From: Escherichia coli
GTDB lineage: Bacteria; Pseudomonadota; Gammaproteobacteria; Enterobacterales; Enterobacteriaceae
Strand: one strand, 5' to 3'
NCBI RefSeq assembly: GCF_003334335.1
Contig: NZ_QOWQ01000031.1
Length of the DNA stretch: 59,951 nucleotides
Shown: one piece after another, positions 9,242-13,056 of the stretch
How positions within the stretch are numbered: the first letter of the stretch is position 1
Layout of the letters: each line of letters starts with the position of its first letter
Translations under genes and position numbers: made by a program
The notes under the pieces: generated by a model
Told to the model about the DNA's origin: nothing
Databases searched by the model: none
The model's input: only the letters and a program-made list of their open reading frames with translations

Positions 9242-9380
9242 AACGTGAGGAAATACCTGGATTTTTCCTGGTTATTTTGCCGCAGGTCAGCGTATCGTGA
9301 ACATCTTTTCCAGTGTTCAGTAGGGTGCCTTGCACGGTAATTATGTCACTGGTTATTAACCAATTTTTCCTGGGGGATAA

Positions 9381-10520
9381 ATGAGCGCGGGAAGCCCAAA
9401 ATTCACCGTTCGCCGCATTGCGGCTTTGTCACTGGTTTCGCTATGGCTGGCAGGCTGTTCTGACACTTCAAATCCACCGGCACCGGTCAGCTCCGTTAAT
9501 GGCAATGCGCCTGCAAATACTAATTCTGGTATGTTGATTACGCCGCCGCCGAAAATGGGGACGACGTCTACAGCGCAGCAACCGCAAATTCAGCCGGTAC
9601 AGCAGCCACAAATTCAGGCTACTCAACAACCGCAAATCCAGCCAGTGCAGCCAGTAGCTCAGCAGCCGGTACAGATGGAAAACGGACGCATCGTCTATAA
9701 CCGTCAGTATGGGAACATTCCGAAAGGCAGTTATAGCGGCAGTACCTATACCGTGAAAAAAGGCGACACACTTTTCTATATCGCCTGGATTACTGGCAAC
9801 GATTTCCGTGACCTTGCTCAGCGCAACAATATTCAGGCACCATACGCGCTGAACGTTGGTCAGACCTTGCAGGTGGGTAATGCTTCCGGTACGCCAATCA
9901 CTGGCGGAAATGCCATTACCCAGGCCGACGCAGCAGAGCAAGGAGTTGTGATCAAGCCTGCACAAAATTCCACCGTTGCTGTTGCGTCGCAACCGACAAT
10001 TACGTATTCTGAATCTTCGGGTGAACAGAGTGCTAACAAAATGTTGCCGAACAACAAGCCAGCTGCGACCACGGTCACAGCGCCTGTAACGGTACCAACA
10101 GCAAGCACAACCGAGCCAACTGTCAGCAGTACATCAACCAGTACGCCTATCTCCACCTGGCGCTGGCCGACTGAGGGCAAAGTGATCGAAACCTTTGGCG
10201 CTTCTGAGGGGGGCAACAAGGGGATTGATATCGCAGGCAGCAAAGGACAGGCAATTATCGCGACCGCAGATGGCCGCGTTGTTTATGCTGGTAACGCGCT
10301 GCGCGGCTACGGTAATCTGATTATCATCAAACATAATGATGATTACCTGAGTGCCTACGCCCATAACGACACAATGCTGGTCCGGGAACAACAAGAAGTG
10401 AAGGCGGGGCAAAAAATAGCAACCATGGGTAGCACCGGAACCAGTTCAACACGCTTGCATTTTGAAATTCGTTACAAGGGGAAATCCGTAAACCCGCTGC
10501 GTTATTTGCCGCAGCGATAA
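9381..10520 (+). CDS. nlpD: Lipoprotein NlpD (LysM domain plus degenerate M23 peptidase domain)
   Basis: 379-aa ORF with lipoprotein signal (LAGCS), Q/P-rich repeats and a C-terminal M23-like domain. The main rpoS promoter is known to lie inside this gene; not mapped here. Confidence 0.9.
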
Positions 10521-10582
10521 ATCGGCGGAACCAGGCTTTTGCTTGAATGTTCCGTCAAGGGATCACGGGTAGGAGCCACCTT

Positions 10583-11598
10583 ATGAGTCAGAATACGCTG
10601 AAAGTTCATGATTTAAATGAAGATGCGGAATTTGATGAGAACGGAGTTGAGGTTTTTGACGAAAAGGCCTTAGTAGAAGAGGAACCCAGTGATAACGATT
10701 TGGCCGAAGAGGAACTGTTATCGCAGGGAGCCACACAGCGTGTGTTGGACGCGACTCAGCTTTACCTTGGTGAGATTGGTTATTCACCACTGTTAACGGC
10801 CGAAGAAGAAGTTTATTTTGCGCGTCGCGCACTGCGTGGAGATGTCGCCTCTCGCCGCCGGATGATCGAGAGTAACTTGCGTCTGGTGGTAAAAATTGCC
10901 CGCCGTTATGGCAATCGTGGTCTGGCGTTGCTGGACCTTATCGAAGAGGGCAACCTGGGGCTGATCCGCGCGGTAGAGAAGTTTGACCCGGAACGTGGTT
11001 TCCGCTTCTCAACATACGCAACCTGGTGGATTCGCCAGACGATTGAACGGGCGATTATGAACCAAACCCGTACTATTCGTTTGCCGATTCACATCGTAAA
11101 GGAGCTGAACGTTTACCTGCGAACCGCACGTGAGTTTACCTGCGAACCGCACGTGAGTTGTCCCATAAGCTGGACCATGAACCAAGTGCGGAAGAGATCG
11201 CAGAGCAACTGGATAAGCCAGTTGATGACGTCAGCCGTATGCTTCGTCTTAACGAGCGCATTACCTCGGTAGACACCCCGCTGGGTGGTGATTCCGAAAA
11301 AGCGTTGCTGGACATCCTGGCCGATGAAAAAGAGAACGGTCCGGAAGATACCACGCAAGATGACGATATGAAGCAGAGCATCGTCAAATGGCTGTTCGAG
11401 CTGAACGCCAAACAGCGTGAAGTGCTGGCACGTCGATTCGGTTTGCTGGGGTACGAAGCGGCAACACTGGAAGATGTAGGTCGTGAAATTGGCCTCACCC
11501 GTGAACGTGTTCGCCAGATTCAGGTTGAAGGCCTGCGCCGTTTGCGTGAAATCCTGCAAACGCAGGGGCTGAATATCGAAGCGCTGTTCCGCGAGTAA
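10583..11598 (+). pseudogene. rpoS: rpoS (sigma-S) disrupted by a 23-bp tandem duplication causing a frameshift
   Basis: ATG at 10583 after an AGGAG RBS. ORF1 (to 11272) carries sigma regions 1.2-2 and then 45 out-of-frame residues. ORF2 (11158..11598) carries regions 3.2-4 in a different frame. The span is 1016 bp, i.e. 993 + 23. Confidence 0.85.
11112..11157 (+). repeat. Perfect 23-bp tandem duplication (TTTACCTGCGAACCGCACGTGAG x2) inside rpoS
   Basis: Copies at 11112-11134 and 11135-11157, flanked by a GTT microhomology. Confidence 0.9.
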
Positions 11599-11691: not shown

Positions 11692-13056
11692 TCAAATTAC
11701 CGCCCATACGCACCAGGTAATTAAGAATCCGGTAAAACCGAGAATGGTCGTTAACACTGTCCAGGTTTTCAGACCGTCTGCTACCGATAACCCCAGATAT
11801 TTGGTCACAATCCAGAACCCTGAGTCATTAATATGTGACGCACCAAGCCCACCAAAGCAGGCTGCCAGCGTCACCAATACGCACTGAATCGGATTCAATC
11901 CCATCACCGCTTCTGAGAGTAACCCGCCGGTTGTCAGTATTGCTACGGTTGCTGACCCCTGCGATGCACGCAGCGCCAGTGAAATAATAAATGCGGCTGG
12001 TAACAGAGGCAGGTCAATCATTTGTAGCATGTTGGCAAGGGCTTTGCCGACGCCCGATTCCACCAGCACTTTGCCAAATACCCCTCCAGCACCAGTAACC
12101 AAAATCACTACCGCCGCAGTAGGAAGCGCTGAGCCCATAATGTCGCTGGTGTGTTGTAAGCTCCAGCCGCGACGTAAAGCCAATAACCAGAATGCCAGCA
12201 CCAGCGCAATCATTAGAGCTACCATTGGTGAGCCGATCAGCTGTAGCGTACCAAGCAGGGGATGCGAAGGCGGCATCAGTGTTGCGGAAACCGTACCCGC
12301 CATGATAATCGCGATAGGAATAACAATTAGCGAGGTGACCAGCGCGACGCCCGGTGGATTTATTTTATCGCTTAATTTTGTCGCGCCTTCCTCACTGGCC
12401 GGAGCCAGTTGCATCTGTTCCAGTACTTCTACTGACATCGCATATTGGCGCTTATTGATTATTTTCGCTGCAAAGTAGCCAACAACCCCTACGGGAATAG
12501 AAATCGCAATACCGATGATGGTTAGCCAGCCGATGTCTGCGTGGAGTAACCCCGCTGCGGCGACAGGGCCTGGATGCGGCGGTACCGCCACGTGAACAGT
12601 GAGCATGATCCCAGCGACAGGCAGGCCAAATTTGAGTGGCGATATTTTGGCAACCTTGGCAAAACCGTAAATGATTGGCGCAAGAATAATAAAGCCGACA
12701 TCAAAGAAGACGGGAATACCGAGGAAGAACGCTGCCAGAGTCAGCGCAGCGATAGTTCGTTTGTCACCTAACTTGCGACTGAAATAATTAGCCAGTGACT
12801 CTGCACCACCAGAGTGTTCGATCATACGCCCCAGCATAGCGCCCAGACCAATAATAATAGTGACGGAACCAAGCACACCGCCCATCCCGGCGATCATCAC
12901 TTTACCCACTTCGCCCGCCGGTATACCCGCCGCAAGTGCGACTAACAGGCTGACGAGGAGCAGAGCAACGAATGGTTGTACCTTTGCCTTGATGGCCAGC
13001 AGCAACAGCATGATTACGCCAGTTAACGCAATGCATAACAATGTAATTGTGGACAT
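11692..13056 (-). CDS. ygbN: GntP-family acid-sugar:H+ symporter
   Basis: 454-aa polytopic membrane ORF; last gene of the ygbJKLMN cluster. Confidence 0.85.
   Translation of the reverse strand: MSTITLLCIALTGVIMLLLLAIKAKVQPFVALLLVSLLVALAAGIPAGEVGKVMIAGMGGVLGSVTIIIGLGAMLGRMIEHSGGAESLANYFSRKLGDKRTIAALTLAAFFLGIPVFFDVGFIILAPIIYGFAKVAKISPLKFGLPVAGIMLTVHVAVPPHPGPVAAAGLLHADIGWLTIIGIAISIPVGVVGYFAAKIINKRQYAMSVEVLEQMQLAPASEEGATKLSDKINPPGVALVTSLIVIPIAIIMAGTVSATLMPPSHPLLGTLQLIGSPMVALMIALVLAFWLLALRRGWSLQHTSDIMGSALPTAAVVILVTGAGGVFGKVLVESGVGKALANMLQMIDLPLLPAAFIISLALRASQGSATVAILTTGGLLSEAVMGLNPIQCVLVTLAACFGGLGASHINDSGFWIVTKYLGLSVADGLKTWTVLTTILGFTGFLITWCVWAVI

Follow-up and report, generated by a model that had tools for sequence, protein, structure and literature searches.

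NlpD of Escherichia coli is an outer membrane lipoprotein that activates the amidase AmiC for daughter-cell separation (PMC5533458). An "unusual amino acid repeat" of the E. coli protein is named in the title of an early paper (Ichikawa et al., 1994, J Bacteriol 176:1630; title as cited in PMC2736372), and the P/Q-rich repeat region was noted again by Tidhar et al. (2009) (PMC2736372). In the domain analysis of Tsang, Yakhnina and Bernhardt (2017), no mutant lacking just the repeat was tested, and the NlpD(1–115) construct was not assessable for function (PMC5533458). The literature yielded no experiment with an NlpD from which the repeat had been removed. The repeat described here is the one on record since 1994, in the same gene and with no difference in kind. 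NlpD has two linkers, and the repeat sits in the N-terminal one, already described as disordered.

Flexible tethers are also found in other envelope proteins, such as LpoB, an outer membrane lipoprotein with a long disordered N-terminal linker, and TonB, with its proline-rich spacer. The length requirement of these two proteins has been tested by experiment, unlike that of the NlpD repeat. The NlpD segment resembles both tethers in being low-complexity, proline-rich and extended, features that let an anchored protein span the periplasm. This is an analogy of function, with no sequence relationship.

Identity and domain organization of NlpD

The stretch of E. coli DNA analysed here (59,951 nt, referred to as the window) carries truD, surE, pcm, nlpD and rpoS, arranged as is usual for E. 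coli. The order surE-pcm-nlpD-rpoS is also annotated in the E. coli genomes that we fetched. The main features of nlpD are as follows.

9381..10520, + strand: nlpD coding sequence, 379 amino acids plus stop (ORF list, Pfam and E. coli genome matches)
9447..9458, + strand: lipobox L-A-G-C, residues 23–26 (translation; LWLAGC at residues 21–26)
9459..9746, + strand: N-terminal linker, residues 27–122, from the anchor to LysM, holding the repeat (AlphaFold; DISOPRED in PMC5533458)
9747..9875, + strand: LysM domain, residues 123–165 (Pfam PF01476, E = 4.2e-12)
10215..10496, + strand: Peptidase_M23 or degenerate LytM domain, residues 279–372 (Pfam PF01551, E = 4.6e-33)

The first-pass annotation had taken the gene for nlpD, and the identification holds. 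Pfam detects LysM and Peptidase_M23, the lipobox LAGC is present, and the gene, annotated as "murein hydrolase activator NlpD", was matched in 5,422 of 5,426 complete E. coli genomes. Many E. coli strains have exactly the NlpD protein encoded in the window. With an M23 domain, a LysM domain upstream of it, a lipobox cysteine and the surE-pcm-nlpD-rpoS position, it is assigned to NlpD on its sequence features. Cys26, which is nearly invariant across 120 NlpD homologues, is the lipid-anchored first residue of the mature protein. RefSeq/PGAP now starts nlpD at the TTG at 9426 (364 aa) instead of the classical ATG at 9381 (379 aa), and with two starts in use, database protein lengths for one allele are 15 residues apart.

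The stretch connecting LysM and M23 (residues 166–278) is a separate, T/S/A/P-rich linker. The Q/P-rich repeat had initially been described as a low-complexity linker between these two domains. Its low-complexity, Q/P-rich nature was borne out but its location was not, as the repeat occupies residues 66–98 and is thus N-terminal of LysM (residues 123–165). The PDB relatives EnvC and DipM align to residues 230–379 of NlpD, and none of the PDB relatives offers a solved structure that covers the repeat segment.

Anatomy of the repeat

The repeat consists of three 24-nt units and a degenerate tail, and two further direct repeats lie within it.

9576..9599, + strand: repeat unit 1, CAGCAACCGCAAATTCAGCCGGTA, encoding QQPQIQPV
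9600..9623, + strand: repeat unit 2, CAGCAGCCACAAATTCAGGCTACT, encoding QQPQIQAT
9624..9647, + strand: repeat unit 3, CAACAACCGCAAATCCAGCCAGTG, encoding QQPQIQPV
9648..9674, + strand: degenerate tail QPVAQQPVQ, directly after unit 3
9579..9589 and 9627..9637, + strand: two copies of the 11-nt direct repeat CAACCGCAAAT (alignments of strain Z1322HEC0006)
9591..9602 and 9663..9674, + strand: two copies of the 12-nt direct repeat CAGCCGGTACAG (repeat search; alignment of strain Z142-6)

The translated units (9576–9647) and the tail together form residues 66–98 (nt 9576–9674). A repeat at about 9580–9680 had been proposed from the sequence; it is real, and the peptide string given for it was essentially right. 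In-register unit starts were located at 9576, 9600 and 9624 by a direct repeat search, while Tandem Repeats Finder reported a period-24 array at 9579–9643 with 2.7 copies and 70% matches. The units have diverged from each other, with DNA identities of 71–86%. The first 9 nt of the tail (CAGCCAGTA, 9648–9656) form a tandem pair with the preceding CAGCCAGTG (9639–9647).

The best 48-nt in-frame self-match of nlpD is 33/48, at an offset of 24. In 500 codon shuffles of the gene the self-match averaged 24.5 (SD 1.2) with a maximum of 29, and none reached 33. At the protein level, QQPQIQ occurs three times in the linker at a spacing of 8 residues, and when just the linker residues were shuffled 5,000 times, no peptide of at least six residues ever occurred three times. 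The repeat is far beyond chance and is not a product of Q/P-rich composition. Four nucleotide positions vary among the QQPQIQ cores of the three units, and all four are synonymous.

Disorder and conservation of the N-terminal linker

AlphaFold prediction with a 120-sequence alignment gave block-mean pLDDT values of 47–59 for residues 41–100, compared with 87–95 for LysM and 92–98 for M23. Residues 41–100 were modeled as coil with almost no secondary structure, and short strands appeared only from residue 98. With a shallow alignment of 18 close homologues the mean pLDDT was 34 and the M23 domain was unfolded too, so that this model carries no information on disorder. In the earlier domain analysis, DISOPRED predicted disorder for both the N-terminal and the LysM-dLytM linkers (PMC5533458).

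Residues 61–98 are the least conserved segment of NlpD among 16 Enterobacteriaceae representatives. The column conservation is 0.35 there, as opposed to 0.71 for residues 27–60 and at least 0.84 from residue 99 onward, and the length of the counterpart segment in these representatives ranges from 20 to 65 aa. Over a wider range of 115 diverse homologues, the distance from the anchor cysteine to LysM is 13–145 aa with a median of 41. The QQPQIQ octapeptides are confined to Escherichia; different Q/P/V-rich strings occur in Salmonella, Citrobacter, Kosakonia and Enterobacter. Yersinia NlpD has no P/Q repeat (PMC2736372). In its predicted coil conformation, its low model confidence beside folded domains and its poor conservation of sequence and length, the repeat segment has the properties of a disordered linker.

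Disorder is predicted for the second linker too, but this linker is strongly conserved in Enterobacteriaceae, with an overall value of 0.84 versus 0.35 for the Q/P segment. Within it, residues 196–226 (9966–10058, including the rpoS promoter) show a conservation of 0.94 and no gaps. The conservation of the second linker is consistent with a double constraint imposed by the rpoS promoter and leader that overlap it.

Length variation among complete genomes

We searched 5,426 complete E. coli genomes for length variants of nlpD with 60-nt junction probes. These represented all in-frame deletions and duplications that could arise through short homology, in five allele backgrounds. The probes were separated by 50-nt random spacers, and the E-value cut-off admitted near-full probe matches only. 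In a local check, normal alleles scored at most 90 bits and true variants at least 111 bits. The census covered in-frame indels of 6, 9 and 12–87 nt, required a microhomology of at least 3 nt for the 6- and 9-nt indels and at least 5 nt for those of 12 nt and longer, and tolerated up to about two mismatches. The variants found are listed below.

−48 nt, 61 genomes: three units reduced to one; breakpoint in CAACCGCAAAT, 9579–9589 / 9627–9637
−72 nt, 2 genomes: breakpoint in CAGCCGGTACAG, 9591–9602 / 9663–9674
+48 nt, 1 genome (strain PapRG-04-4): five units, checked by translation; breakpoint in the CAACCGCAAAT pair
−9 nt, 7 genomes: one QPV lost at 9639–9656
+9 nt, 4 genomes: one QPV gained at 9639–9656

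Length variants were thus present in 75 of the 5,426 genomes (1.4%), and the standard length in 98.6%. The proposal that the repeat number is polymorphic between strains was therefore correct, and the alternative outcome of an identical number in all strains did not hold; the polymorphism is, however, rare. The next commonest allele after the standard one is −48, at 1.1% of complete genomes. Several common length alleles, as expected of a VNTR typing marker, were not seen among these genomes, where one allele accounts for about 98.6%. All breakpoints lie in exact 8–12-nt direct repeats, and all variants found are in frame, the probes having covered in-frame changes only. nlpD was annotated as intact in all ten variant loci that were fetched, with lengths of 1047, 1023, 1143, 1086 or 1104 nt from the PGAP start.

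The length of nlpD was also examined with longer queries. With the full-gene query of 1,140 nt, 38 of 40 records taken at even ranking steps span exactly 1,140 nt. With 111-nt and 200-nt queries, 59 and 10 of approximately 5,400 records, respectively, showed less than 80% coverage, and the weakest of them were the in-frame −48 and −72 variants of strains Z1322HEC0006 and Z142-6, respectively. Literature searches found no published strain-level census of the NlpD repeat length and no report of an nlpD deletion in O157. Papers on the "o454-nlpD polymorphism" were considered as a prior report and rejected, as they treat the mutS-rpoS intergenic region.

Recurrence of the 48-nt deletion and alleles in wider collections

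The haplotypes carrying the −48 allele were compared over 1,065 ungapped nlpD columns. The −48 allele of O157:H7 EC4115 is one SNP away from the full-length allele of O157:H7 E32511, but 10 SNPs separate it from the −48 alleles carried by P276M and ECCWS199, which in turn are one SNP from the full-length allele of the window. Z1322HEC0006 and PEC145 represent two further backgrounds. The deletion is thus found on at least four nlpD haplotypes; it recurs and has arisen at least about four times. Judged by strain names and genome sizes, about half of the −48 genomes belong to O157:H7 or are O157-sized, the outbreak strains TW14359 and EC4115 among them. This share probably stems from one event, so that events are far fewer than genomes.

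The wider protein collection contains a +24-aa allele in an E. coli assembly, as well as −19-aa and −3-aa alleles. The −16-aa allele is also present in Shigella dysenteriae, S. flexneri and S. boydii. An Escherichia assembly (GCA_026283405.1), whose surE-rpoS region is 90.6% identical to that of the window, has a seven-unit QQPQIQxx allele that contains a perfect duplication of the 72-nt three-unit block. In the same assembly, an opposite-strand MarR-family gene (Pfam) lies downstream of rpoS, where the window has a 454-aa ORF (11692–13056, − strand). In strain STEC409, an IS1 element is inserted in nlpD.

Position of the rpoS promoter

The main rpoS promoter lies inside nlpD, as had been pointed out along with the repeat.

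9982..10016, + strand: main rpoS promoter, with −35 hexamer TTGCGT at 9982–9987, −10 hexamer TATTCT at 10005–10010 and start at about 10016

A generic sigma-70 scan of 9250–10600 picked up no promoter, and the promoter was therefore placed from published coordinates. The hexamers reported at −601 to −596 and −578 to −573 (PMC1852560) match the sequence read here, and an rpoS leader of 567 nt (PMC10948607), counted back from the ATG at 10583, gives the start site. From the last base of the repeat (9674) it is 308 nt to the start of the −35 hexamer, which is within the second linker. The same RpoS protein (WP_000081550.1) is encoded in all ten variant loci fetched. The further suggestion that rearrangements of the repeat can affect rpoS expression found no support here, judging from this distance, the in-frame nature of the variants and the unchanged RpoS.

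The window contains a lesion in rpoS itself (10583–11598), a perfect 23-nt tandem duplication in which GTTTACCTGCGAACCGCACGTGA occurs twice (11111–11156). The duplication changes the reading frame from about codon 191 onward, which leaves two ORFs (10547–11272 and 11158–11598). As the duplication splits rpoS, the strain is very probably RpoS-defective. The duplication was absent from all 5,426 complete E. coli genomes. The annotation of O157:H7 E32511 lists rpoS as a pseudogene interrupted by an internal stop. In addition, an E. coli-like NlpD of 340 aa (P0032), known from a single Logan contig, lacks 39 residues of the second linker (QPTITYSE...VPTAS; about 9990–10106 in the window), and this deletion would remove the rpoS promoter region.

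Discussion

The Q/P repeat of nlpD is a real, already known and ordinary feature. In our assessment it is quite probably part of a disordered P/Q-rich spacer under loose constraint, in which slippage generates near-neutral length alleles. The most likely function of the segment is that of a flexible spacer. The tether would join the outer membrane lipid anchor at Cys26 to the peptidoglycan-binding LysM domain and would let LysM and dLytM reach far and move freely enough to work at the septal cell wall. Its role would be passive, and length and sequence would for that reason be only loosely constrained. The diverged 24-nt units still have identical stretches of 8–12 nt in common, and these could, on rare occasions, be the sites of replication slippage or short-homology recombination, giving in-frame contractions and, less often, expansions, which may persist as neutral or nearly neutral alleles. 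We infer the slippage mechanism and the near-neutrality, as we do the spacer function. The variants resemble short-homology slipped-strand events in their breakpoints within 8–12-nt direct repeats, in the reciprocal pairs −48/+48 and −9/+9 and in their recurrence. They differ from a hypervariable VNTR or a phase-variable tract, as the variation is of low frequency and the units are diverged.

Not every observation points to a purely passive role. The synonymous-only differences in the QQPQIQ cores, together with the presence of three units in E. fergusonii, hint at selection on the peptide and not on length alone, and four to seven units are found in a more distant Escherichia. The octapeptides may thus be a functional motif, for example a multivalent low-affinity site for septal peptidoglycan or an envelope partner, whose copy number could tune NlpD recruitment or AmiC activation. 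NlpD(1–115)-mCherry, which has the N-terminal linker alone, was weakly enriched at mid-cell independently of lipidation (PMC5533458), and the linker may therefore have a binding activity. We nevertheless regard such a motif as unlikely. LysM alone is enough for septal localization (PMC5533458), and Salmonella, Citrobacter, Enterobacter and Kosakonia do not conserve the motif, retaining no more than a loose QP(V/I)Q-rich stretch; about one unit is all that C. freundii has, and Yersinia has none (PMC2736372). Lineages with a single unit, namely an O157:H7 sublineage and Shigella, are successful. The exact same length in 98.6% of genomes is compatible with purifying selection on length as well as with a loosely constrained spacer.

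The occurrence of the −48 deletion on at least four haplotypes and the existence of both gains and losses could also be read as a contingency locus, that is, a hypermutable locus with copy number under diversifying selection, for instance if part of NlpD were exposed at the surface and seen by the host. Surface detection of NlpD in Haemophilus influenzae is mentioned in PMC5533458. This is highly improbable for the E. coli repeat, given that only 1.4% of the 5,426 genomes vary and that about half of the −48 genomes appear to be one O157:H7 lineage, with far fewer events than genomes. True contingency loci have homogeneous units, whereas those of nlpD are 71–86% identical in DNA, and near-identical units with frequent copy-number change were not found (75 of 5,426 genomes vary). 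Nor was there expression switching by frameshift or promoter spacing among the variants recovered with the in-frame probes, all of which are multiples of 3 nt, so that nothing is switched on or off. Finally, the repeat length might act at the DNA or RNA level on rpoS, through read-through from nlpD promoters or through shifted upstream promoter elements. rpoS is transcribed from promoters upstream of nlpD as well as from one inside it (PMC10948607), and the repeat is on the nlpD-rpoS bicistronic transcript. With the −35 hexamer 308 nt past the repeat end, a reading frame kept in all variants, for which no polarity is expected, and the same intact RpoS (WP_000081550.1) in ten of ten variant loci, we give this explanation almost no credence.

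A last consideration concerns the recurrent 16-residue contraction, which was fixed independently in Shigella, in an O157:H7 sublineage and in a number of commensal backgrounds, and which might be adaptive. We consider such an adaptive role very unlikely. If true, a shorter tether would change the reach of NlpD to the septal wall and retune AmiC activation or envelope robustness, and copy number would be a slowly mutable tuning knob.

The flexible spacer remains our preferred reading, and the census shows a rare and ordinary slippage polymorphism in a repeat that itself matters little. The useful points for the biology of E. coli are the corrected position of the repeat, a length polymorphism in about 1.4% of complete genomes that reflects a few recurrent in-frame events, and an rpoS promoter at a comfortable distance from the repeat. 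Anyone asking whether tether length matters for NlpD regulation could start from the natural one-, three- and five-unit alleles.
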